Of a stretch of DNA of 55,022 nt, positions 12,199 through 53,540 are shown in pieces. The translations under genes and the position numbers were made by a program. Every line of letters starts with the position of its first letter. The stretch's first letter is position 1. Source of the stretch: a virus (taxonomy: Duplodnaviria; Caudoviricetes); IMG/VR virus record IMGVR_UViG_3300026382_000019, positions 1-55,022 of that record. The stretch is one strand, 5' to 3'. The notes beneath the pieces are model-generated. The model searched no databases. It was not told the origin of the DNA and was given only the letters and a program-made list of their open reading frames with translations.

Positions 12199-12789
12199 TT
12201 ATTTTATTAACTCTATACTTCCATTGTTTATATAGAATGCGTTAAATGATATTTCGGGATAATCAAGAATTAACTCTAAAAAAGCATTGATATTATCTCT
12301 TGAATCATCGTATAGTCTTACTTTTTTGAACTGAGTATTATCTCCTAACATTTTTTTGATAATGTGATATTTTTTTGATGCATTATCCAATCCTGGGATG
12401 TTTCCTGCTCTGATAACATGAACTTTTTGGTCATCTTTGTGCCCAGCTTCAATGCCGTGTTTGACCAAAAACTCTAAAAATCTATCTTTGTCGTCAAAAT
12501 CTTGTCTTGCTGTTAGCAAATAAACCTCTGAATTTGTTGTTTTTGTATTCTCAAAAAGTTCTTGAAGTATCTTTATCATTGGAGTGTTTGGCACTGAAGT
12601 GTTTATAAAAATATCAGTGTCTACAAATTCGGAGAAGTCGAAAACTTCTCCTGTTAATGCTATATATGTATTGTATTCTTGATTTGTTAATTTTCGTAGT
12701 ATATTTCCATTTTCGTCTTTTATGATGATTTTTGCTTTTGTGAAAAATAATGTTTCATCAAGGTCAATAAAAGTAATTGCGTTATTCAA
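12199..12789 (-). CDS. HAD-family phosphatase (RNA-repair / PNK-phosphatase-like)
   Basis: Motif I DLDET, motif II LTAR, motif IV YDDS. Confidence 0.8.
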   Translation of the reverse strand: MNNAITFIDLDETLFFTKAKIIIKDENGNILRKLTNQEYNTYIALTGEVFDFSEFVDTDIFINTSVPNTPMIKILQELFENTKTTNSEVYLLTARQDFDDKDRFLEFLVKHGIEAGHKDDQKVHVIRAGNIPGLDNASKKYHIIKKMLGDNTQFKKVRLYDDSRDNINAFLELILDYPEISFNAFYINNGSIELIK

Positions 12790-13238: not shown

Positions 13239-13730
13239 TTATTTTATGATTTTATTTTTGTTTCTTTTTCTAGTTTTTGCTAGTTTTCTTTTATCTGCTC
13301 TACTCATGCCTTTTACGAGTTTTCCTTTAACATCACAAACCATAGACACTCCTGAATCTTTTGATTTTTTAATTTTGTCAGCATGTTTTTTCTGACATTT
13401 TAATTTTTTCTTCATAGCACGTTTGAATGCTGGCTTTCTTCTTTTTTTGGCTGCATCTTTTTTTGCTTTTGCTGTCATTCTCTCACTGATAGCATCATCG
13501 TCCTCGTCCCAGTCATAAGCATCCCAATCAAAATTATCATGATCAAAATCTTCGCCATCAAAATCACCATATTCTACGATTTCCATTACCAATTCTGTAA
13601 TTTCTGCAATATCATCATCATCCAGGTCTTGTTCTTGTATGAGCTCAATTAAATCTTGCTTTGTCCAATCTTTATCATTGTTTTCATACTCTTGTGCCTT
13701 ATCCTCTAAAATTTCTCTAAAACTTCTCAT
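13239..13730 (-). CDS. Putative prohead core / internal head protein (acidic then basic halves)
   Basis: CTS-like start MRSFREILED; D/E-rich N-half and K/R-rich C-half separated by ISE. Confidence 0.6.
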   Translation of the reverse strand: MRSFREILEDKAQEYENNDKDWTKQDLIELIQEQDLDDDDIAEITELVMEIVEYGDFDGEDFDHDNFDWDAYDWDEDDDAISERMTAKAKKDAAKKRRKPAFKRAMKKKLKCQKKHADKIKKSKDSGVSMVCDVKGKLVKGMSRADKRKLAKTRKRNKNKIIK

Positions 13731-14613: not shown

Positions 14614-14967
14614 TTAATCCTGAAATTTGCCATTAAAGTCATTTTTAACTACAAATTCATTATCCGCTATTTTCTTTCCCTCAGGTAATGCAGATTCGTT
14701 CATAGCCTCTTTGACATTATATTTTAGTAAGATTTTTGCTATTTGATTGTTTAATCTTCTATCAGATATTTCAGGAATATGAAAAAACTTTCTGTCTTTA
14801 GTAACAAGTACATCATCTTGTTTTAGTGCTATGGCTATTTCCATAACAGCTTCGGCATCATAGAAATAAGTAGTTGCCTCCCCATTCCATTCTTTTGCTA
14901 TATAAGAATCAATTTTTTCATCTGACATTTTCTTAACAGCCTCGTTTACGTAATCTTTAAAAGTCAT
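14614..14967 (-). CDS. Putative internal head protein
   Basis: CTS-like start MTFKDYVNE; own TATAAATA at 14988-14995. Confidence 0.6.
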   Translation of the reverse strand: MTFKDYVNEAVKKMSDEKIDSYIAKEWNGEATTYFYDAEAVMEIAIALKQDDVLVTKDRKFFHIPEISDRRLNNQIAKILLKYNVKEAMNESALPEGKKIADNEFVVKNDFNGKFQD

Positions 14968-18302: not shown

Positions 18303-18611
18303 TTAATAACTTAATGCCGGTTTTCTTTTTGGGTCTTTCTTGTCCATCATAATTAGAAAATCTCTCACTGTTTTATATTCCTTTTCATCAAACGAATAAG
18401 AATAATTTGACTTGTCCCATTGAGCGATTAAGGCTTTTAGGTTCGAGTTATTTTTAGCCTTTTTAACTGTAACAGTTATTGGTCCTTTTGTAAATAAAGT
18501 GTATTGAGAATTATACTCTCCCTCTTTATATCCATAATCCAAAACTTCCTCTTTTGCTTTATAGAAGTCATATTTTTTTGCTTCGTTTACATATTCTCTA
18601 AAAGTCTTCAT
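18303..18611 (-). CDS. Putative internal head protein
   Basis: CTS-like start MKTFREYVNE. Confidence 0.6.
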   Translation of the reverse strand: MKTFREYVNEAKKYDFYKAKEEVLDYGYKEGEYNSQYTLFTKGPITVTVKKAKNNSNLKALIAQWDKSNYSYSFDEKEYKTVRDFLIMMDKKDPKRKPALSY

Positions 18612-18639: not shown

Positions 18640-19071
18640 CTAAGCTAGAGTTTTCATCCAGTTCATTGCTTCATTTTTCTTTTCAAAAAAGTTTACAATA
18701 TCACTTTTTTCTCTTGTAACGATCATATATATTTTCCCATTGGGCTTAATATTCCCGCCCCATAGGTCTTGTTTTTCTGCTCCATGACTTGCTGGATATG
18801 TTGGTATTTCAAAAAGTTTAACTTTTTGATTTTTTGTTTGTTTCATAGGCTTAGTCACTTCTGACCATTTAACCAATTTTCTGACAATGCCATCATAATG
18901 TTCAGTGTCTGAACTGTCAGAATTGAAATATCTTTTTAAATCTGGAAGTTGTGCTGTCATTCCTGAACCTTCAGCATATGTTATCCATAATTCTTTGTAA
19001 TCTGTATTATATAGTACATATTCTTTTGTTGCCTCATTTATCTCATTTATAAATTCACTAAATGTTTTCAC
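18640..19071 (-). CDS. Putative internal head protein
   Basis: CTS-like start MKTFSEFINE. Confidence 0.6.
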   Translation of the reverse strand: MKTFSEFINEINEATKEYVLYNTDYKELWITYAEGSGMTAQLPDLKRYFNSDSSDTEHYDGIVRKLVKWSEVTKPMKQTKNQKVKLFEIPTYPASHGAEKQDLWGGNIKPNGKIYMIVTREKSDIVNFFEKKNEAMNWMKTLA

Positions 19072-27712: not shown

Positions 27713-27910
27713 CTATTTACACCCTGCATCATACATATCATCTTGTAGATTGCCACATTTATTTTTTTGTTTGTCTAGCCTAGCTCTCCCCTCTTTTTTA
27801 TCATACATATTGTGGAGGATTTCCTTTTCCTTCTCTAGTTTTTTCTTTAGTTTTTTGCACTTCATCATGTTTAGAAGCCCCTCGTTTAAATATTCTTTAA
27901 ATGTTTTCAT
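27713..27910 (-). CDS. Putative internal head protein
   Basis: CTS-like start MKTFKEYLNE; TATAAATA at 27936-27943. Confidence 0.6.
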   Translation of the reverse strand: MKTFKEYLNEGLLNMMKCKKLKKKLEKEKEILHNMYDKKEGRARLDKQKNKCGNLQDDMYDAGCK

Positions 27911-30266: not shown

Positions 30267-30650
30267 TTAATCTTTGTATATTCTCATATAAGCTTTTCCA
30301 TCACCTTTTTTATTAAAATAATCTAAAGCACTGAAGTGAAATTCCGTGCCGTCAACCGTGATTGTTCCTTCTATATCTTCAACAGGAGCAGCAGGATTTT
30401 GTTTAAAATTATATTTTTTCAGGAAATTTCTAAGTTCAATCTTATCTTCATAAGAGAATTCACTATCAACAAATTGCCACATATTGATAGTAGCTCCTAA
30501 CATAGAACTTGTCTTATCTTTTAACTTTCCTTTAGGTTTTTTCCCTACTTTCTTTAATGCCAAAATTATTACCGATTCTGCAAAATCCCAATCTTCATCT
30601 TTTTCTTTGCTAAATAATCCTTCACTTATAAATTCTTTGAATGTTTTCAT
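30267..30650 (-). CDS. Putative internal head protein
   Basis: CTS-like start MKTFKEFISE; TATAAATA at 30673-30680. Confidence 0.6.
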   Translation of the reverse strand: MKTFKEFISEGLFSKEKDEDWDFAESVIILALKKVGKKPKGKLKDKTSSMLGATINMWQFVDSEFSYEDKIELRNFLKKYNFKQNPAAPVEDIEGTITVDGTEFHFSALDYFNKKGDGKAYMRIYKD

Positions 30651-40147: not shown

Positions 40148-40155
40148 TATAAATA
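40148..40155 (+). promoter_or_regulatory. T4-type late promoter of the signalling operon
   Basis: TATAAATA 20 nt before ATG 40176, followed by AAGGAG. Confidence 0.6.
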
Positions 40156-40175: not shown

Positions 40176-40640
40176 ATGAAAGAACTCATAAAAATCGACC
40201 AATCATTACAAAAATTACAAAATGACTTTAACTCTCAACTTGAAGTTCTCGGATCAGATACTAAAGAATTTCATAATGCTTTGATAGAATTGAGTTCGAA
40301 ATATCCTGACCATAAGGAATTGCTTCAGTTTATTGTTTTTATAAATGACAAACTTGAAATTAACCAAAATTTATTTGGTGAAATTGTATCAGATTCATTC
40401 AATGAAATGATAAGACTCAAGAAGGAATTGATATGTGATATCATGTCAAAACATGGACCATCGAAGGACACTCAAAAAGATGAAGGATCATTGTGGAGCA
40501 AAACAAAAGACTTCATTGGCTCATTTAAAAATGCAAAAATTATTCTGACTGCAATGGCAGTCATAGCACTAGCAGCAGCGGTCATCATTGCACCTGCAAT
40601 GTTTTTAAAAATTATCACTGCACTAGCAAAATTATTATAG
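40176..40640 (+). CDS. Coiled-coil protein with a C-terminal membrane anchor
   Basis: Helical N-terminus; hydrophobic C-terminal segment of about 30 aa. Confidence 0.7.
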   Translation: MKELIKIDQSLQKLQNDFNSQLEVLGSDTKEFHNALIELSSKYPDHKELLQFIVFINDKLEINQNLFGEIVSDSFNEMIRLKKELICDIMSKHGPSKDTQKDEGSLWSKTKDFIGSFKNAKIILTAMAVIALAAAVIIAPAMFLKIITALAKLL

Positions 40641-40655
40641 GATTAGGAGGATAAA

Positions 40656-41354
40656 ATGTTTAAGGGAATTACAGAATTTACAAAAAAATTATTCGAGAGG
40701 ACTTTTGAGAGGACTGACGAGCAAGGCACTACTGAGGAAGACCTTTTCGATGACGAACCTGAGATTCAGGATGATTGTTCTGTTTGTGAATTGAGACATC
40801 AGTGTGTAACAAAAAGGGCATGCGAAAAAGGTTTGGTACCTAAGCTTGATGGTATAGATACATCAAAAGATACACTCCTTATTATTGATGATAATGAGGG
40901 AGTGGTGTCATTCCTAAAAGATGATATAGAATACTTTTTTGAAAATGACATAATCAAAAGGGATGAAATTAATTTACTCGCACTTACTGGCACTGATGCT
41001 GCATTTGCATTGCAAAGAATTTACAAGAGAGGCATTGATATCAAAATAAAATGGGCTATCATAGATATAACACTCGGTGGAAGTAAAATGACTGAGAATG
41101 GAAATATTAAACTTACAGGAGTTGATGTCTTTGAGGAGATTTTCAAACATACACCCGAAAAAGAGGATTTCAAATTTTTATTTTATACAGGGAATAACCT
41201 TAATCCTTATATAAAGTCTAATGAAAAACTTATTGAGCAATTTAAAGTAGTAAAAAATGAGGGTATTAAAAAATATGTTTTATTCAAAACATCAATTGAT
41301 ATAAAGTCAAGAAGGAGTTATATTTCAAAATTTCTCTTCGGGAAGAAAATCTAA
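40656..41354 (+). CDS. Stand-alone response regulator receiver protein with an N-terminal Cys cluster
   Basis: LLIIDDNEG, AIIDITL (phospho-Asp), GVDVFEEI, FLFYTG, LFK; N-terminal CSVC-x5-C-x5-C. Confidence 0.75.
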   Translation: MFKGITEFTKKLFERTFERTDEQGTTEEDLFDDEPEIQDDCSVCELRHQCVTKRACEKGLVPKLDGIDTSKDTLLIIDDNEGVVSFLKDDIEYFFENDIIKRDEINLLALTGTDAAFALQRIYKRGIDIKIKWAIIDITLGGSKMTENGNIKLTGVDVFEEIFKHTPEKEDFKFLFYTGNNLNPYIKSNEKLIEQFKVVKNEGIKKYVLFKTSIDIKSRRSYISKFLFGKKI

Positions 41355-41368
41355 AATAAGGAAATGAA

Positions 41369-42637
41369 ATGATAAATATACATGACGCGATTATCACATT
41401 AAAAAGCCATATCAAGAATATAATTATATTTTTGGTTTTGGTTAATGTTATAGCACTTGGGAGTTTTGCTGTTGTTTTTAACATTCATACTGATTACATT
41501 GATAAGCAATTAGACAATAATATTATAGAGTACCAAGAGATTGATCAAGAGCAATTATGTAAATTGGTAAATTGTAAGGGAGTTATTACAAGTTCACACA
41601 AACTATTTAGTCCTGACGAAAAAGGGCACCTAAAGATTGCAGAATATAAAGAATATAGTATGCACAAAATCAATAAAAATTTATTTTTGTTTGATACTGA
41701 TGAACTTGCATTGTATAATAAAGTTGCAGATTCATATTACATTATGGATACATCAAAAATATCAGATGATTACGGGGATATTGCAATGATCTTCATTCCA
41801 TTAATGTGTCTGATTTATCTTGTGCCACTATATAATTCCATAAAGAGGGAAAAAGAGGAGGCTCTTATTCTGAATGCTGGTTCGGAGGCTTTGCTTGCTA
41901 ACAAATCCATGATTAACATAACAGAGAATATACATCATGAATTAAATACACCCCTTGAGGTTATCGATAATAAAATTGAAAAAATTCATACAGAATTGAG
42001 TAATTTTTTACTTGAGGAATACGAAGCAACTGAGAATATTGATACCATTCCTGAGGATAGAATAAAACGAAATAAAAGGATTGTAAAACTCAACGGAGAT
42101 TTTGAATTCATTAGGACATCATCAGAGCAAATCTATGCAGTCCTTGAGAAAATGAAAGGATTCAAACACCTCAGATATAGCAACGGAAACAAATCTCTGA
42201 AAAATATTATTGATGGAGGATTTAAAATTATAAATATTAGCAACACAAACTTTGAATATAAGGTCGATCCTAAATTAGCACAATACAAAATAGGCACCAA
42301 ACTCCTTGTTAATGCAGATTTTTTGAGTATTATTTTAAATCATCTTAAAAATTCTTTGGAAGCCAATGCTTCCAAAATTTTTATTTTATTCAGTAAGTCT
42401 GATGAAAATAATGTGTATATTAGGATTATAGATAATGGAAATGGTATACCTAAAGATGCTCAAAAGAAAATATTTGCACCTAATTTCAGTACCAAAAACT
42501 CTGATACAGGAATTAGAGGAAACGGAATGTACCTAAACAAACATATAATGGAGAATGCAGGCGGAAGTATATCATTGATTTCATCAAGTAAAAAAGGAAC
42601 TACGATAGAATTGAAAATTCCTTCTATAAAAAAATAA
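41369..42637 (+). CDS. Membrane sensor histidine kinase
   Basis: Two TM helices flanking an extracytoplasmic loop; H-box IHHELNTPL, N-box NHLKNSLEA, G1 DNGNGIP, F IFAPNFSTK, G2 GIRGNGMY, GT. Confidence 0.9.
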   Translation: MINIHDAIITLKSHIKNIIIFLVLVNVIALGSFAVVFNIHTDYIDKQLDNNIIEYQEIDQEQLCKLVNCKGVITSSHKLFSPDEKGHLKIAEYKEYSMHKINKNLFLFDTDELALYNKVADSYYIMDTSKISDDYGDIAMIFIPLMCLIYLVPLYNSIKREKEEALILNAGSEALLANKSMINITENIHHELNTPLEVIDNKIEKIHTELSNFLLEEYEATENIDTIPEDRIKRNKRIVKLNGDFEFIRTSSEQIYAVLEKMKGFKHLRYSNGNKSLKNIIDGGFKIINISNTNFEYKVDPKLAQYKIGTKLLVNADFLSIILNHLKNSLEANASKIFILFSKSDENNVYIRIIDNGNGIPKDAQKKIFAPNFSTKNSDTGIRGNGMYLNKHIMENAGGSISLISSSKKGTTIELKIPSIKK

Positions 42638-42651
42638 GGAGGTACAGAAAT

Positions 42652-42942
42652 ATGAAGATTTTAAGGGTGCTTGTGATATTATTGATATTTTGTAATGTTG
42701 CTGTACCAAAAGAAACTCGAGAATATATGGATACAAAGGAAGAGATTATATTGGTTCTTCGTCATTCAGATTGTGACATCGAATCAAAATCCGTTAAAGG
42801 ATGGATCAGAATTTTTAACTCTGATGACAGACTTAAGGATTATGGTATATATATATCAGAAAAACAAAGAATAATATTTTTGAGTTATTTTAAACATAAA
42901 TTAGAAGAAAAGCAAAATAGATATAAAAGGGAGATAAAATAA
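42652..42942 (+). CDS. Small exported protein
   Basis: Signal-peptide-like start MKILRVLVILLIFC; AGGAGG RBS. Confidence 0.65.
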   Translation: MKILRVLVILLIFCNVAVPKETREYMDTKEEIILVLRHSDCDIESKSVKGWIRIFNSDDRLKDYGIYISEKQRIIFLSYFKHKLEEKQNRYKREIK

Positions 42943-44192
42943 TGGGCAAAATAAATAAATTATTATTGATGATATTAATCACATCAGTTCTTACCTTAAA
43001 TCTTATGGCTGATAATAACATGAATTTCAGCGGGATCATGAACATAGGTTATGGCCATGCTGAAAAAAACTTTTCGAACAAGGAAAATGAAACAAAAGAG
43101 ATTTATACATCAAACCTTCAACTTAATGCAGATTACGAAACTAATGATTTCTATTTTCAGAGTACACTTTTTGGGTATGTATATACGATGCCAAATAATC
43201 AAAAAGCACATCTCATAAATTATCATGATGGATATGAGAAACAGGATGTATTTTTCAGAAGCCTTTACGGAAGTTACAAAATTAATCAAAATTTATCAGT
43301 GGGAGCAGGATACCTTGCATTCAGCAATTCTACACCATCAAAATATAACAACGATTACATTCAAGACGGCGAAGGAATCTATATGCTTAATGATAATACC
43401 CTAGCGGCAGTTTTTGCAGTGTATAAGGAAGGCAATTCCAGGACTATCGTGGGAATAGGAACAATCGATGAGACTTTTATTAATACCGGAATGTACATTG
43501 ATGATGCTTTGAGACAAGGGGGAGCATATACAATTTTTGCAATTAACACATACAAATATGAAAGATTTACATTTACATCAGAATTTTTGTATAATTCTTT
43601 AACATATGAGAAAAAAGATTTGAGTGATATTTATCAAGTCGGTTTTGCCACGGCATGGGATGATTCAGAAAATTCTGGATGGTCACTCTATAATGTCCTT
43701 GGCGCAAGTATATATGATAATCATAATGAAGATGCCAAAGAGGAAATTTTCAAAAATGTACTTGGGCCTAAGGCAAAATATGGCGATTATATTTTGGCTA
43801 AATATCCTAATAATTTTGCTATTGAGAACAAAAAATATTATGGTGCGGCAATGCTATGGGGTTTCAGAAAAGATTTTGATATTGATAGGCAAGAATTTTT
43901 CGTCACTGCAGAGTGGTTCCATACTTTTGGTGATTGGACATCAGGCAATCAAGGAAACATTTATTTGTGTCAGGATAATCAGGTTTTTAATATTAGAGAT
44001 GATTCATATTATGCGACATTAGGATATATAATTAATGATCAAGCTACTGTGAAATTTGTGTATACATATTCAGAATATAATGAAAAGGGCAAAATTGGTG
44101 CACCAGCAAGCACTGTAGATACTGAAGATTATATAGGTCCTCAAATTAATAAAATAGAAATTATAAGATTTATATTTTCGTATAAATTTTAG
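42942..44192 (+). CDS. Outer-membrane beta-barrel (porin-like) protein
   Basis: Signal peptide ending LMA, alternating aromatic/hydrophobic strands, C-terminal beta-signal RFIFSYKF. Confidence 0.7.
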   Translation: MGKINKLLLMILITSVLTLNLMADNNMNFSGIMNIGYGHAEKNFSNKENETKEIYTSNLQLNADYETNDFYFQSTLFGYVYTMPNNQKAHLINYHDGYEKQDVFFRSLYGSYKINQNLSVGAGYLAFSNSTPSKYNNDYIQDGEGIYMLNDNTLAAVFAVYKEGNSRTIVGIGTIDETFINTGMYIDDALRQGGAYTIFAINTYKYERFTFTSEFLYNSLTYEKKDLSDIYQVGFATAWDDSENSGWSLYNVLGASIYDNHNEDAKEEIFKNVLGPKAKYGDYILAKYPNNFAIENKKYYGAAMLWGFRKDFDIDRQEFFVTAEWFHTFGDWTSGNQGNIYLCQDNQVFNIRDDSYYATLGYIINDQATVKFVYTYSEYNEKGKIGAPASTVDTEDYIGPQINKIEIIRFIFSYKF

Positions 44193-44208: not shown

Positions 44209-44745
44209 TTATTTTTCTAAAATTTCCTTTAATACAGAGAACATAAAATGAATTTTTTTATCTGTAAGTTTTTTGAATGTTTCTAAATCATCATTTTTTA
44301 TAGCATTTCTAACTTTAGTGGCTGAAATATCTTCATCAGTCCTTTTAATTTCTTTGATTTCCAATGTTCTATCGTTTTCCATATATTTCATAAAAGATTT
44401 ATATGCTTTAACTCTATCAGAGCCTGCATAGGCAACGAACTTAGTTCCATCAGGAAGTTTGTTTAATTCATCAACAAAAAATCCAGTGCTAATTATTTTA
44501 ATTTGAACATTTTTTGGTGCTATTAATTCTAGCATTTTTTTCTGAATCTCTGTATCAAATGGATTTTTGGTTTTATCTTCTGATGACTTTTTACCTTTGA
44601 CCAAAAATATTATAACTTTTTTATTTTCTTTTGCCATTGTATTAATGATAGATGAGTGAGCTTTTGTGACAGGTTGGAAACGTCCACTAAAGATTCCTAC
44701 AGAATCTTTAGCTTCATTTAGTGCTATTTCTTTAAATGTTCTCAT
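44209..44745 (-). CDS. HIGH-family nucleotidyltransferase (cytidyltransferase-like) with a capsid-targeting N-terminus
   Basis: Start MRTFKEIALNE at 44745 (AGGAG); GRFQPVTKAH, NPF, AGSDR, ISATKVR. Confidence 0.82.
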   Translation of the reverse strand: MRTFKEIALNEAKDSVGIFSGRFQPVTKAHSSIINTMAKENKKVIIFLVKGKKSSEDKTKNPFDTEIQKKMLELIAPKNVQIKIISTGFFVDELNKLPDGTKFVAYAGSDRVKAYKSFMKYMENDRTLEIKEIKRTDEDISATKVRNAIKNDDLETFKKLTDKKIHFMFSVLKEILEK

Positions 44746-45691
44746 TGTTTTTCTCCTGCAACATAGAATCATGATTGATATAATCCTTAAAAGATATGTT
44801 TTCTAACATCAGTTTTTCTACTTTATCCAAAGCCTTTTGCTTATCTATTCCTTTTTGTTTACCTGCCTCACCTGATTTAATAGAAACCATACTTTTGAAT
44901 ACTCCTTGAAGTCTTCTTAGACTTCTAGCAAGCTTGAATGTACTTTTTATTTGTTTTAGTAATTTGTCAAAAGATAGTGACAAATCCAGTTTGTATAATA
45001 TTATTTGCAAGTCATTCCAATTCCTTGATGTCCATATTACTTCTTGCTTTATAGTTTTATATTCTTTATTTTTAAGTTTATCGGGATCATAAGTAATCTT
45101 CCTTAATTGAATTTCTTTGGAACTACAATTAAACTCTATCTCCATATTTTTTTCAAGTTCTGGTTTTTTGATTTTCAAATCTTTTAATATTTTATTGGCA
45201 TTGAATTCTATCATAGCAACCTTAGTTGCTCCCAACACAATACCTTGCTTCGCTGCTGGCATATCCAAGAAATCTTTTTTGAATCTTGTTTCTGAAGCAT
45301 CCATAGCAATCATGTAATCGACTTGACATGCCTGAATAGAAGGGTTCGGCACATTAAGAGAAATAGTGATAATTTCTCCTGAGTTATAGTATCTTTTTCC
45401 TGCATATTTTTCTGACACAAAAGGAACGATTAGTTTGTCTGATTGTGACACAAAATGTTTTGCTAGTGCAGATTTGATTTTCTTTTTATCATTATCGTAA
45501 AGAGAGCCATCAATATGTGTGATTAAATCTATATCACCAAATTTAGTTTTCTTTTTATCTGAATTATATGAGCCTGTAGGCTCGATTGATACAAATCCAG
45601 GGAAATCAGAAATGATTTCCTTTGCTGTTTTTAATATCTCCCTAAAGTCTTTTCTGCTTTGTATTTTATTATTTCCTGTTACACCTGACAT
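44732..45691 (-). CDS. Pol-beta-superfamily nucleotidyltransferase
   Basis: TGSY...GDIDL and a third Asp in CQVDYM. Confidence 0.72.
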   Translation of the reverse strand: MSGVTGNNKIQSRKDFREILKTAKEIISDFPGFVSIEPTGSYNSDKKKTKFGDIDLITHIDGSLYDNDKKKIKSALAKHFVSQSDKLIVPFVSEKYAGKRYYNSGEIITISLNVPNPSIQACQVDYMIAMDASETRFKKDFLDMPAAKQGIVLGATKVAMIEFNANKILKDLKIKKPELEKNMEIEFNCSSKEIQLRKITYDPDKLKNKEYKTIKQEVIWTSRNWNDLQIILYKLDLSLSFDKLLKQIKSTFKLARSLRRLQGVFKSMVSIKSGEAGKQKGIDKQKALDKVEKLMLENISFKDYINHDSMLQEKNNENI

Positions 45692-45706
45692 ATTATACTC
45701 TCCTTT

Positions 45707-46663
45707 TTATATAAGATTATTTATGAAACTTCTAAAATTTTCTTTTAAAAGACTGTCATCTGGTAAAAATTTTGTCTCATAATGTTCTTTTTTGTTAAGC
45801 CTTCTCCAATCATCTTGAATATCAAAAGGGATATCTGCTCGTGTATGCGATAAGATTTTGAAATAAATATTTAAAATTCCATCTCTATCTTTTTTAGGAA
45901 TTTCATCAAGTTTTTTCACAAGTTTGAAATAATTGTTTATAACATTTTTTGACAATTTTAGACCCATAGCATTTTCTAGGTAAGGAATCATGTCCTTAGG
46001 TTTCGTTGCCAGCTTTTCGCCAGTCTCAATATCACTCAATCCTTTTGTGTGACTGAAAGAATATCCATAATAATTAAACATTGAAAGCATAAGCTGAGTT
46101 CTGTGCAATCCTTTAACATTACCTTCATATTTATCAGAAAAATAACTGAATTCTAGCAAATCCATATCTCCTATCATCCAATCCATTTGAACACCATAAT
46201 CAAGTTTTTCTCCTGATTCTGTATACTGAGGAAATAAACCAAAAATATTACCTGAAGTAATTTTTTTCTCATCGCAATATAGATTTTCGGCATAAGCATT
46301 AATCTTTGTCACAATACCCTTAAGGATTGCTCTTACCATAAGTTCAGAATCTGTAGCAGTTTTTGCTCTCTTTTTGTATGCTAGCATTTGCTTTTTCACT
46401 TCTTCAGGATTCAATCCCCATTTTTGGATTGATTTGTCAGAAACTCTTTTATCTACTATGCTGGATACATCAATAGCAAAATCAATGTCACCTGATACAG
46501 GTTTTTTGCCAACTGAACCAATGTATCTCATTTTGTCATGATTAAAAATATCTTTTTTATTAGGAAATACTCTGCCTAATTCTTGAAAATATCTTTTTAC
46601 TGTCGGATCAATATTTTCTAATTTTATGCTTTGTGTTTTGCCTTTAAATACGTTTCCTCCCAT
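45707..46663 (-). CDS. Pol-beta-superfamily nucleotidyltransferase
   Basis: Start MGGNVF at 46663 (TAATG-coupled); IGSVG...SGDIDFAID and VQMDWM. Confidence 0.75.
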   Translation of the reverse strand: MGGNVFKGKTQSIKLENIDPTVKRYFQELGRVFPNKKDIFNHDKMRYIGSVGKKPVSGDIDFAIDVSSIVDKRVSDKSIQKWGLNPEEVKKQMLAYKKRAKTATDSELMVRAILKGIVTKINAYAENLYCDEKKITSGNIFGLFPQYTESGEKLDYGVQMDWMIGDMDLLEFSYFSDKYEGNVKGLHRTQLMLSMFNYYGYSFSHTKGLSDIETGEKLATKPKDMIPYLENAMGLKLSKNVINNYFKLVKKLDEIPKKDRDGILNIYFKILSHTRADIPFDIQDDWRRLNKKEHYETKFLPDDSLLKENFRSFINNLI

Positions 46664-47070
46664 TATTTTTCTCCCCATTTGCCATCAAAAATAGCTTTGT
46701 GTGCTTTAATTAGTTGTTCTTTATATTTTGACCATTTAGCACTTAATTTTTGAGTGTATTTTGAAGAGTGGTTTGAACCAAAATCAGGATAGTAAGCTAA
46801 ACCAAATTGAGCATTCTCATAATCATCATCTTCTTTTAACCAAACAGAGATTTCAACTTTTTTATCACCATTTTTTAGATATAAAGATACTATATTAGTT
46901 GGATGAGTTGAGTATTCCTTACTCATAGCCTCATAAGTAACTCCATTTACAATAAAGTGTGCCCCACAATTGGCACACTGCATACCTTCAATCTTAGGGG
47001 CATCACAGCCACCTTTATAAGTCATTTTGGCTGTACTTTCTTGAAGTGCAATATCTCTAAATGTTTTCAT
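46663..47070 (-). CDS. Putative internal head protein
   Basis: CTS-like start MKTFRDIALQE; TATAAATA at 47094-47101 heads the NTase operon. Confidence 0.6.
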   Translation of the reverse strand: MKTFRDIALQESTAKMTYKGGCDAPKIEGMQCANCGAHFIVNGVTYEAMSKEYSTHPTNIVSLYLKNGDKKVEISVWLKEDDDYENAQFGLAYYPDFGSNHSSKYTQKLSAKWSKYKEQLIKAHKAIFDGKWGEK

Positions 47071-47135
47071 TTTTATCTCTCCGTGTTTGTGGTTATTTAT
47101 ATAATAATTATATCATAAAATACATTAAATGATGC

Positions 47136-48494
47136 TTAATATACCTTAATGAAAGGACCAAATTTCTCTCCTTTTTTCTGTGCCAAAAAGCCCCATTCCG
47201 TTACTAATTTGTCCAACTCCTTTGATGTAATACTAGACATATAAAATGCTAAATGTAATCCTTGAAGTTTTGTATTTAATTCTATGAGTGAGTATGTTTC
47301 TCCTGCACCATAGGCCATTTCAATTGACTGTAATGCCTCCTGCACTGATGGTACACCAAGATTAAATAATTTTTTTGATTTTATTTTGGTAAGCATTTTT
47401 TTATAATCACCTTTAACCTTCAAAAATTCTTCTAAGGTTTTTGGCATTTTCTTACCTTGAGGAAAATCATAAGACAGCATTTTTAATGTTGCATTTCTCA
47501 TAGCGGCAGGCACTTTGCCCATTTCAGCACTAGCGCCTTTGCTTTTGTATGACACTTGAACATTGCTTGTTTCTTTTTTTGGGTACATCCTAACCTGAAC
47601 ATTTATTTTGGATGATCCTATATATTGAAGGTCATAATTTAATTCATCGTTTACAAATTTCCCGTTCTTGAGTGATAGCAAAAGATTTCCTGTCAAAAAA
47701 GGATAATCCTCATGAACACCTTTTTTGACATTGATTATATCATATGTTGCTTTTGCTTTAGTTTTTTTGAGCGATATTCCTATAAGCCTTCTGTCATTAA
47801 AAAGTTCTACCATTTTTGCATTAAGATGTTCTATTGTTTTGAAGTTTGCTTCTTTAATTTCCTTTTGAACCTTTTCGTCCTCAATCAACCATATATCAGC
47901 AGGGTTCCATGAATCCTTTTGAGAAAATCCTAGTCGTTTAACCTCTTTGGTTATAAAGTCCATAAAACCACCGTCTCGGTTGAATATTTTGATTTTCCTA
48001 ATGCCTAATGTTTGTACTATTTTTTTGAATGTTATATATTGTGCTTCAAATGATATAATCCAAGATTTTTCATTTGGAAGGTCAGTGTAAATTTCTGAAA
48101 GTTCTTCGATTGTATATTTTTTGCTTGGCGTCTTAATGATTTTTTCTATAATCTTGAGCGAACACAATTCCTGATATTGAGTGGTTTTGGCATCACCTTT
48201 TCTGGCATTGACCTTAACATTTTCCTTGCTTATGTCTGATAATGTTATATATTTTTTTGTTTGTACATTTAGAAACATTTTTCTTAGCCTAGTGCCGTCC
48301 TTGATAATACTTTCAAAATCTTTTTTCGTTTTTGCAATCAATAATTTGTCAATGTATTCTTTATCAATTTCAATTTTTGTAAACTTCTTTTTATTCTCGG
48401 GAAATAACAAAAATGGCATGCCATTTTCAATTTTATTCAATAAAACCTCAAGATATGAATGTTTTACTAGGTCTGCAATTTGTAATTTTGCCAT
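47136..48494 (-). CDS. Putative PD-(D/E)xK-like endonuclease
   Basis: QE helix, WNPADIWL and IGISLKK, read as a variant restriction-endonuclease catalytic motif. Confidence 0.5.
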   Translation of the reverse strand: MAKLQIADLVKHSYLEVLLNKIENGMPFLLFPENKKKFTKIEIDKEYIDKLLIAKTKKDFESIIKDGTRLRKMFLNVQTKKYITLSDISKENVKVNARKGDAKTTQYQELCSLKIIEKIIKTPSKKYTIEELSEIYTDLPNEKSWIISFEAQYITFKKIVQTLGIRKIKIFNRDGGFMDFITKEVKRLGFSQKDSWNPADIWLIEDEKVQKEIKEANFKTIEHLNAKMVELFNDRRLIGISLKKTKAKATYDIINVKKGVHEDYPFLTGNLLLSLKNGKFVNDELNYDLQYIGSSKINVQVRMYPKKETSNVQVSYKSKGASAEMGKVPAAMRNATLKMLSYDFPQGKKMPKTLEEFLKVKGDYKKMLTKIKSKKLFNLGVPSVQEALQSIEMAYGAGETYSLIELNTKLQGLHLAFYMSSITSKELDKLVTEWGFLAQKKGEKFGPFIKVY

Positions 48495-48532
48495 AGAAGC
48501 CTCCCATTTTATGATTATTTATATCTTAATGC

Positions 48533-50140
48533 TTAATCAATTAGTTCAAGTCCTAATTTTTCTAAATCCCTTATCCTTACATTATACATATATAGTAAAT
48601 GCTCTTTTATTTCTTCTATATCAATATTTAATTTTTTGCAAATAATTTCCTGATTTTTGATATAATTTTTATTTTTCATTAAATCTTCTATATTAAAGAA
48701 TGTTAAATTTTTATATTTTTCGTAATTTTCATGGATTTGCTTTTTCTCAGAATCACTCAAAATGTTAAAATCAAAAACAGGGAGGTTTAACAATTGCTTT
48801 CCTCCAACCTCTTTAATCACTCCTCGTTTATTTTTTCTACCTGACCTTTTGGTGCCATTTTTGATAAAAGCCTCAATAACCAAAAGGGAAGGTAATGACA
48901 TCATCAATATAGGAATAACTTCAGTATCAATACTTTTCGGGTTTAGTCTGACATACTTTGAAGATAATACACATTCTTCTTTATATGTAAATAATCTAGG
49001 ATATAAATCAATAGCCATTGTATAAAAAACAGAATTTTTATGAATATTGTACCTTGTTAGGTTCACATCAGAATATTTTACATAATATTCTAGGTCTTCC
49101 TCTTTAAGATTTTCTCTATATATGGCAGGAGAATTTACTCTAGCCTGCTTTTGGTAAAAAAGTTTTATATTTCCTTTTTCTTTTTTATTATGTATTTTAT
49201 TATCTTTTAGTAACGAAGCAAAATTTAATCCTGCAGTTTCTAATGATATATACTCGCTCAATGGCTCAAAGTCCTTTGTTATTTTTTGAGTGTATTCATA
49301 TGACTCATTGTACATTATAAGTCTATTTTTCATATTATGAGTATTACTAATAGGGTCATCAATAGGAACATTAATAATTTTATCATTGAGGCTAAACTCT
49401 GTATCAGTTACTGAATTCAATATAATATCATTATTATTTTTATCATTACTCTTATCATTCGTGATATATACACCTATGGCATTGGTGTCATCCCTGAAAA
49501 AAGGATAAAAATTACTTGTAATTAGTCTATCTAATCTAAAATGATTTGATGTTTTTGGTCCTAATATCTTCCTTAGGACATCGCCATATCGTGTTTCCAA
49601 CCATTTATCGGCACACAAAAACACCAATTCTCCATCCTCATCGAGATGCGATAAGCATTTTAGATAAAAATAAATGTAAATGTCAGACCTTAAATCTACG
49701 TCCTCTCGTTTGATACCTAGAACATCAAAATCAATATTATCCTTGATAGCCTCTATATACTCAGATTTTGACATACTGTCATGTTTTATATTTCTGTAGC
49801 TGATGTAAGGAGGATTGGTAATGATGAGAGAATATTTTTTGTCATTTTTTGATAACAAAAAATCTTCATGATACAGGTTCGTATTTTTCTGAACATCAAT
49901 CACATCCAATGCTGTCTTTTCGATGTCATAACAGTCATATTCGAGATATTCATCTATATTGTCTAGGCAAGCATAATAAAAACTCCCTGTGCCCACTGAA
50001 GGGTCAAGGATTCTTTTTTGCTTTTTGTTTTCTATCTTTGAACAAATCTTGTCTGATACAAAAGGATGAGTATATGTATTTCCTAGGTTTCTATCTTTAT
50101 CAATGTTAAAATTTTTATTTACATCCCATATTGCTTTCAA
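48533..50140 (-). CDS. N6-adenine DNA methyltransferase (gamma class)
   Basis: Motif I LDPSVGTG, EDFL, motif IV NPPY, DIYIYF. Confidence 0.88.
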   Translation of the reverse strand: MKAIWDVNKNFNIDKDRNLGNTYTHPFVSDKICSKIENKKQKRILDPSVGTGSFYYACLDNIDEYLEYDCYDIEKTALDVIDVQKNTNLYHEDFLLSKNDKKYSLIITNPPYISYRNIKHDSMSKSEYIEAIKDNIDFDVLGIKREDVDLRSDIYIYFYLKCLSHLDEDGELVFLCADKWLETRYGDVLRKILGPKTSNHFRLDRLITSNFYPFFRDDTNAIGVYITNDKSNDKNNNDIILNSVTDTEFSLNDKIINVPIDDPISNTHNMKNRLIMYNESYEYTQKITKDFEPLSEYISLETAGLNFASLLKDNKIHNKKEKGNIKLFYQKQARVNSPAIYRENLKEEDLEYYVKYSDVNLTRYNIHKNSVFYTMAIDLYPRLFTYKEECVLSSKYVRLNPKSIDTEVIPILMMSLPSLLVIEAFIKNGTKRSGRKNKRGVIKEVGGKQLLNLPVFDFNILSDSEKKQIHENYEKYKNLTFFNIEDLMKNKNYIKNQEIICKKLNIDIEEIKEHLLYMYNVRIRDLEKLGLELID

Positions 50141-50176
50141 ATTATTCCTTTTCTAATATTTATAACCCAATTCATC

Positions 50177-51257
50177 CTACCATTCATCCTCATCAATTAA
50201 TTCTGTGGAAGGAGTAAGGTCCCATCCTATTGGATCAGTGATGAGTTTTATGTTTCCTTCAAAACCTTTTTCGTACATTAAGTCTATATCTATAAATTTA
50301 TCTAATCCATACTCAAAGATTTTTTCGTTATTAAATGCAAAAGCATTGCTTCCTGTAATATTTGGTTCTTTCATATATAGAAAACCTATTTTATCTCCTG
50401 GTTCTATTTCTTTTATCCCTTGTATATTTTTATCCTGAATATATTTATTATGAATAAGGGATGCTCTTGAATTTACAGGAGCACTAAGCCATTTATTTTT
50501 CTCTGGTACCCATCTTTTGAATTTTTTATCCTGTTCCTGCCACTGATAATCAAGGCTGGATACACCCTGATTTATACATATTTGAGATGGCAACTGTTCA
50601 TATGTTTTTTCTTTTACCTCTTTCATAAAATTTATAACTTTAGGTAAATCACCATCAATCAAAATGTCCATAGCAGCACCAAGCTCTTTTCTGAAAAATT
50701 TTGGCGTTGTCGCTCTTATCATTGATAATCCCGTTACTTTAAGTTTAGGTTTTGCTAATTTTATATCATCTTCTTGTAATTTTCTACAGAAATACATTTT
50801 TGGTGCAACTGAGATAAAGCAGTCTGCCACAATTTCTCCGTCTTCTATTAGTTTTTCTGGTAAAAAAGCATTAATAGTGTCTGACTGATGAGTTAAGCTT
50901 TTATATGTTACAGGCAACGAAACTTTCTCTATAAAATTATTGGTAAATTCCAATAATCTGTCCTTAGATGCATTATTTTCATAGTCTTTCCCAAATTTCT
51001 TGACAATAAGAGGTTCCACAGACATGTACAAACTGTCGGTATCAATTTGTGCTACATGCCTCCAATTAGTATTCATTCCGTGAAATGTTTCTGTGTCTTC
51101 TTCACCCAATACTTTATCTAAATGAGTGCTATTTGCTTGAATAGCATTTAGGTTAGCATTTCTTGCCCCTGATGTTACTGCCCCAGAAAAATATTCAGCG
51201 TGACCTGCAAATACTGTTGCTTGCATACTTAAGGCACCATAGGCACTATTAATAAGG
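50177..51257 (-). CDS. gp43: Family-B DNA polymerase, exon 2
   Basis: LINSAYG after the splice site, IDTDS, KMY, LKVTGL, TP. Confidence 0.9.
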
Positions 51258-51618
51258 CGATGTGTTCAATTTAAGTTCGTTACTCTTAAATCTGAGCTTT
51301 TAACTCAACTCTGTATCTCTACAGATGTCCAGACTATATCTTCATCCTTAACTTAATATTAGGATGCCCACCACTTCCACTCACTTGAGTGTACTTCCTT
51401 TCGGAATAGTCGTTGAACCTTCTTCGTATTATATATTATATGTTATATAACTTAGAAGCTTGGCTGCTGATTGTCTTTACCTTATATTTTTCAAACGTTC
51501 ATATAGTGATTTCTCCTATATTGTAGTATATAAGTATTATCCAGATGTCCCAGCAATTCAATGGGTTTCTTCAATGAGAACTATCATATATTACTATATG
51601 ACGAGACCTTGATTTTTA
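51258..51618 (-). ncRNA. Group I self-splicing intron (361 nt, no ORF)
   Basis: Exon 1 ends in U (AAG AU) and the intron ends in G; splicing restores KILINSAYG. Core elements CAACGACTA and AAGATATAGTC; P1 and P10 pairings present. Confidence 0.9.
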
Positions 51619-53540
51619 ATCTTCATTCCCATTTGAAATACATTCCATCTATCAGCCTCTGCTGATAGATTGAAAATTTTATCTTTATCTTCCTGAGATA
51701 ATTCAACTTTTTTCTTAATTTCTTCTATTTGCACATAGCATGTTTGCATCAATTTTTTGTACTTTTTACGCTTAACCATAATGTCTTCCATTGTTTGTGA
51801 AAGGACACTTCTGAAGTCTTTTCTAAAGAACATTCCGTTTGGAGCCATCGAAACATTATATTTTTTACAGACTCTCATAACTTCTGAACTTGCTTCATCA
51901 TTATTGATAACATGTTCTTGAAACCAAAAGTCGTATTTAATTAATTCTTTAGCATCTACATTCCTAGGATAAAAAATTGCATATTTTGCTCTTAATAATA
52001 AAAGTTCATCAGGCAAATCTTTTGGCTGTATTAATGTCTCAATACCGATATTTAACCACTGAATAACAGAAGGGTATAGTGAAGCAAAATCTAATGAATA
52101 TACCCATTTCCAGAATTTTGCTGTCCCTTTAACAATACCGCCAGGGAATGTCTGTGATGTCAATTTATTTTCATGATCATTTGCTGCTATGAGGTTCATA
52201 TAAAATTGAACCCTATCATCATCTATAAGACTTCTAAAATTTTCATCTTTTTCTATTCTAGTTAATAAAACCGTGTCAGTATCGTCAAATTTGCCTTCTA
52301 ATGGTAGAACCTGGGATTTTTTATAATGATTGTTAAACATATAACTGTTCCACTGCGCTAGTGTTCCTCTGATCATATCCATCGTTACGCCAGTTTCGTA
52401 TGAAATCATTTTCGCTAGGTCAATAAGTTTCAGTTTTTTGTCTAATCCAATGAGCAATTCAACATCCTTAACACCGTACTCGATGAATGTCTCAAAATTA
52501 TTAGCGTAAAATTCAGCAAAATCTGCATGTTCATCATGTTCTACTTTATTTTGGCCAAGTTCATACCCCGCCACCGTATCCAGACTGTATGATGTATGAG
52601 TGGTATATGTATATTTTTTGTACATTTGCATGTAATCTTCTTGAATTATACCAACCCATAAAAACTCATCTTGAACACCGTATGTTGTATTAACCTCTTT
52701 ATGCTTGATGAGGTTTGCGTGTGGTGATAATTGTTTAACATATTCACCGTTAAGGCAATCAGTATCAAATCTCCATCTTGCTTTTTCTTTATCATAATAG
52801 TAAAGGTCATTCCTTTTGTCAAGGACTCTTATGATTCTATTAGTGATATAAGGATCATCATATGTTTTTGTATTCCATCCTGTCATTACAGAAGGGTCCC
52901 TCTTTTTAAGAAGTTCTAAGAAAACTTTTAATAATTTTTCTTCAGTTTCACAATTTATATATTTTATAGCACCATATTCAGATTCATATTTATTTTTGTT
53001 CTCCCACTCTTTATTAAGTCCTAAAATAAAAAAAATATTTGCCTTAGTGTCAAAAATTTGTATTGATGTGATTGATGCCATTGCTGCTCTATCATGACCC
53101 ATTGGTTTCCAATCATTTTTACATTCTATGTTTTTGTTAGGAAGCATATTTTCATCTAATGAAGCTGTTTCAATATCAAAATACCATGTATTACTAAATT
53201 CATGAAAGGCATCAATTGGGTTAGGCCAATATTTTCTAATATATGTTTGCTCTTGAGATTTATTTCCATATATGCTAATGTTTGAACTTTTATAGAGATT
53301 TGCAGCATCTCTATGTTCTTTCATGGTTTTGAATGTTAATTCTTTTAAGGATTGATTTTCTGGGACAGATTTTAATTTTGAATTTCCTTTTTTATCATGA
53401 ATAAAAATGCTTGGTATCACTTTTATTGATTCTGTAAAACATTCTTTTGTCTCGGGATCATATAGTCTTGCATATAAGGCTCCCATGTTTCCTTTGAAGA
53501 CATTCTCATATTGTAGATTTCGTGTGTTTGGGTTTGTCAT
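51619..53540 (-). CDS. gp43: Family-B DNA polymerase, exon 1 (spliced product 1000 aa)
   Basis: Exo I FDIET, Exo II GWN...YD, YSLD, Exo III Y...DV, motif A SLDFASLYPS. Confidence 0.93.

Follow-up and report, generated by a model that had tools for sequence, protein, structure and literature searches.

A late operon for putative head-destined nucleotidyltransferases in a T4-like phage fragment

The viral sequence IMGVR_UViG_3300026382_000019 (Duplodnaviria; Caudoviricetes), analyzed here over its whole length of 55,022 nucleotides and referred to as the window, contains on its minus strand a compact operon of four open reading frames (ORF1 to ORF4; Table 1). On balance, our analysis favors the view that this is a late operon of head-destined cargo proteins encoding a conserved enzyme set, in which a small lineage-specific protein (ORF1) is followed by two PolX-like nucleotidyltransferases (ORF2 and ORF3) and an adenylyltransferase of the HIGH superfamily (ORF4). 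Judged from their leader peptides, ORF1 and ORF4 are probably packaged in the phage head, and packaging of all four proteins appears reasonably likely, while nucleic-acid end processing as the function of the enzymes is put forward as a tentative and rather doubtful proposal. Three other explanations, which are discussed below with the evidence that bears on them, are considered less likely in view of the ranking of the fold matches and of the agreement of the leaders with the targeting positions of the T4 capsid-targeting sequence (CTS). An earlier note on this DNA had described three nucleotidyltransferases behind one late promoter that look virion-packaged, and this description is supported by the (L/I/V)xE leaders found in relatives and by the LxE sites with CTS-like tails on ORF2 and ORF3. 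The packaged appearance gains further support from a gp21-type protease in related contigs and from a leader-bearing ORF4 homologue listed in a published virion proteome.

Operon layout, putative targeting peptides and cleavage sites

The window is a fragment of a T4-like phage (55 kb, ~30% G+C, CheckV completeness estimate 29%), which encodes a split family-B DNA polymerase, a primase, an RNA ligase and a polynucleotide-kinase-like gene and carries T4-type late promoters. The late promoter consensus TATAAATA precedes the operon, and a Shine-Dalgarno sequence, GGAGAG, lies between this octamer and the ATG of ORF1. Since the octamer is only mildly enriched in the window (24 copies versus 14.3 +/- 4.0 in shuffled sequences, 3 of 100 shuffles reaching 24), it is its placement and not its count that carries weight: of the 14 minus-strand copies, 13 are followed by an ORF start at a distance of no more than 37 nt, and for 10 of these 13 it is the first start codon in an ORF of at least 90 aa. 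The genes behind this promoter are closely coupled, with the stop codon of ORF1 overlapping the start codon of ORF2 (TAATG), a spacer of 15 nt that includes another GGAGAG between ORF2 and ORF3, and an overlap of 14 nt between ORF3 and ORF4. A convergent plus-strand gene ends at 44192, which therefore marks the end of the operon. The start codon of ORF2 is most likely the one at 46663 (MGGNVF) and not that at 46678, and the start codon of ORF4 is most likely the one at 44745 (MRTFKEIALNE) and not the first ATG at 44772. A fusion of ORF3 and ORF4 by a -1 frameshift was considered and dropped, as ORF4 lies in the +1 frame with respect to ORF3 and the upstream GAG-AAA-AAC is unfit for a -1 slip into it. 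All elements that the earlier note had listed, a late promoter, a CTS-tagged small protein, two Pol-beta-fold nucleotidyltransferases and a CTS-tagged HIGH nucleotidyltransferase in tight coupling, were recovered at the positions given for them.

Table 1. Coordinates of the operon, its putative targeting peptides and other features of the window
Feature	Position	Strand	Description
Late promoter consensus TATAAATA	47094-47101	-	T4-type; 23 nt upstream of the ORF1 ATG at 47070
ORF1	46663-47070	-	135 aa; lineage-specific small protein, CTS-like leader, no known family
ORF1 leader MKTFRDIALQE	47038-47070	-	11 residues
ORF2	45707-46663	-	318 aa; PolX-like (palm plus thumb) nucleotidyltransferase
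ORF2 C-terminal tail NFRSFINNLI	45710-45739	-	CTS-like; directly after L-K-E
ORF3	44732-45691	-	319 aa; PolX-like (palm plus thumb) nucleotidyltransferase, distant ORF2 paralogue by profile comparison
ORF3 C-terminal tail NISFKDYINHDSMLQEKNNENI	44735-44800	-	CTS-like; directly after M-L-E, second LQE site inside
ORF4	44209-44745	-	178 aa; predicted HIGH-superfamily adenylyltransferase, CTS-like leader
ORF4 leader MRTFKEIALNE	44713-44745	-	11 residues
Six further CTS-led ORFs	13239-13730, 14614-14967, 18303-18611, 18640-19071, 27713-27910, 30267-30650	-	several with their own TATAAATA
HAD-superfamily phosphatase	12199-12789	-	motif DLDETLF, no Pfam match
452-aa protein	47136-48494	-	own TATAAATA at 48516-48523; matches phrog_1462 (function unassigned)
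DNA methyltransferase-like	48533-50140	-	Eco57I-type N6-adenine; 535 aa, TTG start; late-promoter consensus at 50157-50164
Family-B DNA polymerase, part	50177-51226	-	phrog_262 570-846
Family-B DNA polymerase, part	51594-53540	-	phrog_262 222-518
Plus-strand island	40176-44192	+	behind TATAAATA at 40148; ORFs of 154, 232, 422, 96 and 416 aa

According to passages from the T4 literature, the CTS of this phage reads MKTYQEFIAE (PMC8442874), with residues 4 and 7 responsible for targeting and residues 8 and 10 for processing (PMC9026906), and the prohead protease gp21 cleaves after Glu in I/LxE motifs (PMC12991175). A similar leader opens eight minus-strand ORFs of the window, namely ORF1, ORF4 and six others. 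When the core motif of this leader was searched in the 14,998 residues encoded by the window, 11 matches were obtained, 9 of which fall within the first 13 residues of their ORF, one of these 9 being a HAD motif. The tag boundaries in the window are formed by sites of the (I/L/M)xE type (LQE, LNE, LKE, MLE and LQE). ORF2 and ORF3 lack an N-terminal leader and carry in its place a C-terminal LxE-type site followed by a CTS-like tail, so that, with slashes marking the sites, the C-terminus reads LLKE/NFRSFINNLI in ORF2 and LMLE/NISFKDYINHDSMLQE/KNNENI in ORF3. The mature proteins are basic, with isoelectric points (pI) between 8.3, the value for ORF1, and 9.6.

The strongest pattern in relatives concerns the residue in front of the mature N-terminus. 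Of 120 ORF2 homologues, 65 have a leader whose last residue, Glu, directly adjoins the invariant GGNVF, 45 have the initiator Met in front of this motif and 1 has a different residue there; the remaining nine are truncated. The 65 leaders have L (45), I (15), V (4) or F (1) at P3, i.e. L/I/V in 64 of 65, and are CTS-like, as exemplified by MKTFVEYLTE, MITFKEFITE and MRIRELLSE. Similar results were obtained for 80 IMG/VR loci, which are the best 80 of 268 confirmed with the ORF3 profile: here Glu precedes GGNVF in 54 cases and Met in 24, two sequences are cut, and no other residue was found. The corresponding motif of the ORF3 family, SGVxG, was examined in 151 proteins: it stands behind the start Met in 118 of them, behind Glu in 16, behind an internal Met in 1 and behind Ile in 1, and 15 proteins are without an N-terminus; at the junctions of ORF2-ORF3 fusions the sequence is xxE/SG in all 12 cases. 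Under this M-or-E rule the same mature N-termini would result either from removal of the initiator Met or from a cut after Glu, and this is the pattern that would be expected of prohead-protease substrates, including polyproteins that are cut at their junctions. In line with these results, Peptidase_S77 (gp21) scored above its cut-off in four of five long related contigs, the fifth being 39% complete. In addition, a C-terminal Glu site with a CTS-like F-x-x-(F/Y)-(I/L) tail was found in 22 of 44 leaderless ORF2 homologues and in none of the 65 leader-bearing ones (Fisher p 3.5e-11, a value that overstates the independence of these related sequences).

The strict occurrence of Met or Glu before GGNVF and SGVxG implies that a free N-terminus matters, and activation would account for it as well as targeting does. 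The enzymes might hence not be ejected at all and instead act late in the producing cell or in the prohead, for instance on the ends of DNA during its packaging, with the peptides serving as zymogen switches or linkers; the many untagged family members and the use of the ORF4 leader region as a linker in fused forms, both described below, would agree with this. We nevertheless regard this explanation as improbable, because the leaders match the T4 CTS beyond the cleavage site, at the targeting positions 4 and 7, because the leader type of ORF1 recurs at the start of seven further minus-strand ORFs in the window, and because the S-CREM2 study reports from purified virions a homologue that has such a leader (PMC10665884). 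Packaging and delivery remain the favored interpretation of the peptides.

Folds and families of the encoded proteins

Searches of Pfam, PHROGs and NCBIfam returned nothing significant for ORF1, ORF2 or ORF3. Alignments of the ORF2 and ORF3 families nevertheless identified the residues expected of nucleotidyltransferases: in ORF2 the catalytic residues GS49-50, D59xD61 and D161 do not vary across 50 sequences, GLHRTQ is likewise an invariant motif, and in ORF3, which starts with MSGVTG, G40 and D53xD55 are invariant and S41 and D125 nearly so in 42 sequences. AlphaFold models built on the family alignments reached pLDDT values of 92.7 (ORF2) and 94.7 (ORF3) and were compared exhaustively with known structures using VIA-align and, for ORF2, also by Foldseek against the PDB. 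The ORF2 model aligned with Pol beta over 181 residues (Z 9.1, rmsd 4.7) and with Pol X of African swine fever virus (ASFV) over 164 of 176 residues (Z 9.0), followed by Pol lambda and TdT, and the best 50 Foldseek matches were all family-X polymerases. Likewise, the ORF3 model aligned with Pol beta over 183 residues (Z 12.2, rmsd 4.1), followed by TdT (Z 11.9), Pol lambda (Z 11.6) and ASFV PolX (Z 10.6, 163 of 176 residues). TUTases, poly(A) polymerases, OAS and CD-NTases gave lower scores with both models and matched only ~100 residues of the palm. CD-NTase chains, ranked below PolX, reached Z 4.3-4.9 with ORF2 and 7.5-8.5 with ORF3 over ~95-110 residues, and the CCA enzyme of A. fulgidus aligned with the ORF2 model at Z 4.0 over 92 residues, with no Pfam or NCBIfam match to support it. 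The structural comparison with the CD-NTase, PolX, CCA and MNT families that the earlier note had called for thus tends to favor PolX over the other three. A search of BFVD folds retrieved only uncharacterized phage proteins and PolX entries of giant viruses, and the ORF2 and ORF3 profiles had no significant match among the PDB sequences.

Although BLASTP of ORF2 against ORF3 found nothing significant, a profile-profile comparison with hhalign joined them with 87% probability (E 3.9e-6) over 140 columns, the catalytic motifs among them, and by this comparison the two proteins are distant paralogues. The prediction of a complex between ORF2 and ORF3 scored 0.01 and 0.00, with 0.32 as the mark to reach, in a run without controls, and is no evidence either way. 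Both families are large: that of ORF2 has at least 1054 members in metagenomes, all without names or Pfam domains, and that of ORF3 comprises 178 representatives at 50% identity, while in the nearest ESM Atlas clusters every member with a recorded taxon is viral. ORF1 offers a different picture. As it has no relatives in the 80 IMG/VR loci and only nine in a large protein collection, it appears to be lineage-specific and not a conserved member of the module; a weak Pfam match to a zinc ribbon (E 0.0017) was rejected, a single Cys being invariant across ten sequences.

NMNAT-type enzymes carry the signature motifs (H/T)xxH and ISxTxxR, and ORF4 contains the corresponding sequences GRFQPVTKAH and ISATKVR. 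It scored 33.3 bits on Pfam CTP_transf_like against a cut-off of 21 and also matched PHROG families named cytidyltransferase. When the profile of its family was searched against the PDB, NMNAT structures were matched with E values of 4e-11 to 1e-9 and PPAT with ~2e-9, and the best NCBIfam equivalog models for NMNAT gave 23-31 bits, short of their cut-offs of 112-418. Since NMNAT and PPAT score nearly alike and all curated NMNAT models fall far short of their cut-offs, ORF4 was placed only at the level of the clade and is, by its motifs and profiles, an adenylyltransferase of the NMNAT/PPAT type. The assignment to the HIGH superfamily made in the earlier note therefore holds, whereas an identity as NMNAT is not established.

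These assignments bear on the idea that the operon serves a counter-defense chemistry of cofactors or signals, in which ORF4 would be a genuine NMNAT and restore NAD+, or a different dinucleotide, as infection begins, and ORF2 and ORF3 would not extend nucleic acids but make or modify small nucleotides, for instance decoys, oligonucleotides or capped dinucleotides. NMNATs are the best PDB profile matches of the HIGH family and the top NCBIfam matches, a fusion in the Flavobacterium phage immuto is annotated as NMNAT/NadR with an annotated NAD synthetase ~5 kb away, and the S-CREM2 paper speculates that the enzyme controls NAD+ (PMC10665884). The palms of CD-NTases and OAS also match the two models, with Z about 4.3-8.5 over ~100 residues. 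PPAT is, however, nearly as good a match as NMNAT and all scores of NMNAT equivalogs lie far under their cut-offs; PolX is matched over both palm and thumb (163-183 residues) whereas CD-NTase, OAS and TUTase are matched over the palm only; and no partner of the known phage pathways of NAD reconstitution was found among those window ORFs that were scanned, which were only some of them. We thus give little credence to this explanation.

The Pol-beta fold also occurs in enzymes that modify proteins, and ORF2 and ORF3 might by analogy be injected modifiers that AMPylate or UMPylate host proteins in the manner of DrrA or GlnE. T4 Alt offers a parallel, as it is a packaged, host-modifying enzyme that gp21 trims at both ends according to passages of PMC9026906, and the ORF3 profile weakly matches DrrA. 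This match is not significant (E 0.78), though, and no DrrA or GlnE chain occurs among the fold matches listed, at the top of which stand polymerases with a thumb, so that we consider protein modification very improbable.

The module in other phages

Relatives of the operon genes are found together in many other phages. Of the 268 viral loci that encode an ORF3 relative, the 80 best all contain an adjoining ORF2 homologue, which lies directly upstream in 78, downstream in one (L046) and is separated from ORF3 by a HAD gene in another (L031). A HIGH gene on the same strand was detected with an iterated profile in 56 of the 80 loci, 32 of them with the gene fused to ORF3, 18 with it at most 200 nt downstream and 6 with it at another place in the locus; the gene was not found within at least 3 kb downstream in 16 loci, and 8 loci end early. 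For two of five records without HIGH nearby, the gene is present elsewhere in the record. Homologues of the three enzymes thus do co-occur outside the window, and the lack of co-occurrence that the earlier note had named as a refutation was not seen.

In a number of relatives the proteins are fused. Among the 151 proteins of the ORF3 family, the ORF3 domain is followed by HIGH in 23, and ORF2 and ORF3 form a single chain in 12; P0183 combines ORF2, ORF3 and HIGH, and 6 of the 12 ORF2-ORF3 chains open with a HIGH motif (identified by eye, in one case also by phmmer). CTS-like motifs also occur in the linkers by which ORF3 and HIGH are joined in fused proteins. That ORF2 and ORF3 work together is better argued by their adjacency in all 80 loci than by these fusions. 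A fourth enzyme recurs beside the module, since a homologue of the HAD phosphatase of the window is found at most 6 kb from it in 14 of the 80 loci. In L005-L007 this homologue has a CTS leader and immediately precedes ORF2, in L031 it separates ORF2 from ORF3, and in four proteins (P0152, P0269, P0242 and P0159) it forms a domain after ORF3. Moreover, in P0126 the ORF3 domain is followed in the same chain by a homologue (E 7.7e-22) of the CTS-led 102-aa protein at 18303-18611 (MKTFREYVNE...), an example of how putative cargo proteins are strung together in relatives.

Among the cultured phages of the collection, clear homologues of both ORF2 and ORF3 occur only in the immuto phages of Flavobacterium, in which gp089 is ORF2-like (41% identity) and a region of gp088 is ORF3-like (37% identity). 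The latter gene (L001 6911-9634), annotated as NMNAT/NadR, encodes a 907-aa fusion of a PolX-like domain (residues 1-288) with HIGH (~287-437) and a C-terminal part of ~450 aa, which contains the motifs HEMIHH and HEIEH and in Pfam has only a weak Peptidase_M91 match. The NAR paper on phage immuto makes no mention of the module genes.

Published information on virions comes from cyanophages. The ORF4 family is represented by 254 records in cultured T4-like phages, 196 of them Synechococcus phages, and the S-CREM2 study lists the cytidylyltransferase ORF154 among the virion-proteome proteins of this phage and states that such enzymes are often detected in cyanophage virions (PMC10665884). S-CREM2 ORF154 starts with MKNFSSFLTE and aligns to residues 12-178 of ORF4 with 22% identity (E 2e-5), and gp136 of S-P4 starts with MKKFSAFLNE. 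These two cyanophage proteins belong to the HIGH family of ORF4, carry CTS-like leaders and have a gene like that of the 452-aa protein of the window in a syntenic upstream position; they differ in that their loci encode a DUF6267 protein where the window has the PolX-like pair, and their identity to ORF4 is only ~22-30%.

Several findings weigh against a head cargo of PolX-like enzymes. With respect to the folds, ORF3 scored 17.0 bits on Pfam DNA_pol_B_palm versus a cut-off of 25, which was passed by two homologues (P0242, 25.5; P0183, 27.5), and ORF2 had no match; both proteins are without the 8-kDa lyase and fingers domains, their models aligning from residue 1-10 to Pol beta ~104/142-338; and a predicted likeness to the PolX fold does not establish the substrate. 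With respect to the tags, many family members carry no visible tag, including 14 of 24 stand-alone HIGH genes, which are leaderless, and in the more distant IMG/VR set the C-terminal tail was found in only 1 of 13 distinct leaderless ORF2s with a C-terminal anchor (4 more being without the anchor) and in 0 of 40 leader-bearing ones, on account of which the C-terminal tag is seen as a trait of the clade to which the window belongs. In the fused forms it is the inter-domain linker that aligns with the CTS-like peptide of ORF4, and this peptide could be a structural helix and not an address. The window, a 29%-complete fragment, encodes no gp21-type protease, and the available passages on T4 contain no experimental precedent for a C-terminal CTS, only the C-terminal trimming of Alt by gp21 (PMC9026906). 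Fusions that are cut apart as polyproteins would indicate co-packaging only and not a shared pathway. Finally, the S-CREM2 authors themselves caution that carry-over in CsCl preparations is possible (PMC10665884).

A number of further observations concern genes around the operon and in the cyanophage loci. Residues 182-257 of the 452-aa protein are homologous to S-P4 gp134, which is encoded two genes upstream of the HIGH cytidyltransferase of S-P4, and the two proteins share WNPADIW ... G(I/F)SLKK, possibly a nuclease site, as judged by eye only. Relatives of the 452-aa protein adjoin the module in L076, L022 and L025, and those in L022 and L025 have a CTS-like leader. In S-P4 the HIGH enzyme is preceded by gp135 (L087 3851-4783), which matches DUF6267 (E 1.6e-94) and contains a VKWDG motif, and gp050 of the Stenotrophomonas phage Moby (L086 4189-4995) contains IKMDG; a role of DUF6267 as a KxDG ligase-like or covalent nucleotidyltransferase was considered and is not established, the motif having been recognized by eye and neither PDB sequences nor HMMs lending it support. 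No DUF6267 protein was found in the window or in the 80 loci. Moby gp048 was considered as a homologue of ORF2 or ORF3 and is kept as a lead only, with an MGGNV start and GS...GDVD found by eye and HMM E values of 0.096 and 0.0057 (five-sequence set). Within the plus-strand island of the window, the 422-aa ORF encodes a histidine-kinase-type ATPase (HATPase_c, E 2.5e-17) and the 416-aa protein has a signal-peptide-like start and belongs to no family; the island looks like a phage-borne two-component pair. The methyltransferase-like gene and the two parts of the split DNA polymerase are given in Table 1.

Proposed role and comparison with known systems

In the mechanism that we propose, each of the four proteins would bear a T4-type capsid-targeting peptide bounded by an (L/I/M)xE prohead-protease site, at the N-terminus in ORF1 and ORF4 and at the C-terminus in ORF2 and ORF3, and would be built into the scaffolding core. 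A gp21-type protease would then trim the cargo, exposing in relatives the invariant Gly-Gly and Ser-Gly N-termini, and the trimmed basic proteins would remain in the filled head and enter the next cell with the DNA, before phage genes are expressed. Less certainly, the PolX-like pair may add nucleotides to the 3' ends of nucleic acids, whether to fill gaps, repair ends or add tails on RNA or on phage DNA, and may do so together with the HAD phosphatase found beside the module in other phages; addition at 3' ends is proposed because of the thumb domain and of this phosphatase companion. The HIGH enzyme, likewise less certainly, might make an ADP-linked cofactor or adenylylate a phosphate. A more far-reaching version, which we hold to be unlikely, is that the T4 capsid label is position-independent, functioning at the N-terminus, at the C-terminus or in a linker, and loads an injected PolX-PolX-HIGH(-HAD) machine for the repair or tailing of nucleic acids that would heal, fill or tail ends before phage gene expression, e.g. 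those of the incoming genome or of damaged tRNA.

Injected proteins act before phage gene expression and hence determine how the first minutes of the struggle against host defenses turn out; to our knowledge few such phage proteins besides T4 Alt and IPI have an assigned function. The module is large and widespread, yet its PolX-like proteins belong to no Pfam, PHROG or NCBIfam family, and if packaged they would constitute the first PolX-type enzyme set that we know of in a bacteriophage head. The M-or-E rule offers an easy way of testing metagenomic sequences for prohead-protease substrates, and the swap between N- and C-terminal tags would, if true, widen the rules for loading foreign proteins into T4 heads. 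Since the Flavobacterium phage immuto is cultured, the module is amenable to tests at the bench. Searches of the literature on CTS, prohead proteases, PolX and the virion proteomes of T4-like phages yielded no account of the module. They also returned no paper on the PolX-like pair as candidate cargo, on the M-or-E rule with its polyprotein junctions or on the apparent shift of the tag to the C-terminus, while the virion association of HIGH enzymes has already been reported in cyanophages.

Among known enzymes, ASFV Pol X resembles ORF2 and ORF3 most in its organization, since it shares the GS...DxD...D motifs, is matched over palm and thumb and likewise has no 8-kDa or fingers domain. ASFV packages Pol X as part of a repair system, which makes it a comparison for a virion-borne repair kit. 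The two window proteins differ from family X polymerases in their low identity (only 8-15%), in an extra C-terminal helical region, in an insertion of ~55 residues in ORF2 and in being two paralogues that are always paired, and for them a polymerase activity is predicted only. ORF4 shares the GxFxPxT/HxxH and ISxTxxR motifs of NMNAT and PPAT, the first His of HxxH being Thr.

The closest parallel for the operon as a whole is offered by the internal proteins of T4, IPI, IPII and IPIII, and by Alt, with which it has in common late expression, an N-terminal leader of ~10 residues, a cut after Glu at (I/L)xE and basic mature proteins. The T4 leader MKTYQEFIAE and the window leader MKTFKEFISE at 30650 are identical at 7 of 10 positions, and in both phages the cargo is a diverse and fast-changing set that is common only in its tag. 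In contrast to the T4 proteins, the predicted cargo of the window has its putative tag at the C-terminus on ORF2 and ORF3, and relatives have it in polyprotein linkers. Whereas the internal proteins of T4 are small inhibitors, the cargo predicted here consists of a conserved set of enzymes that counts over 1000 homologues.

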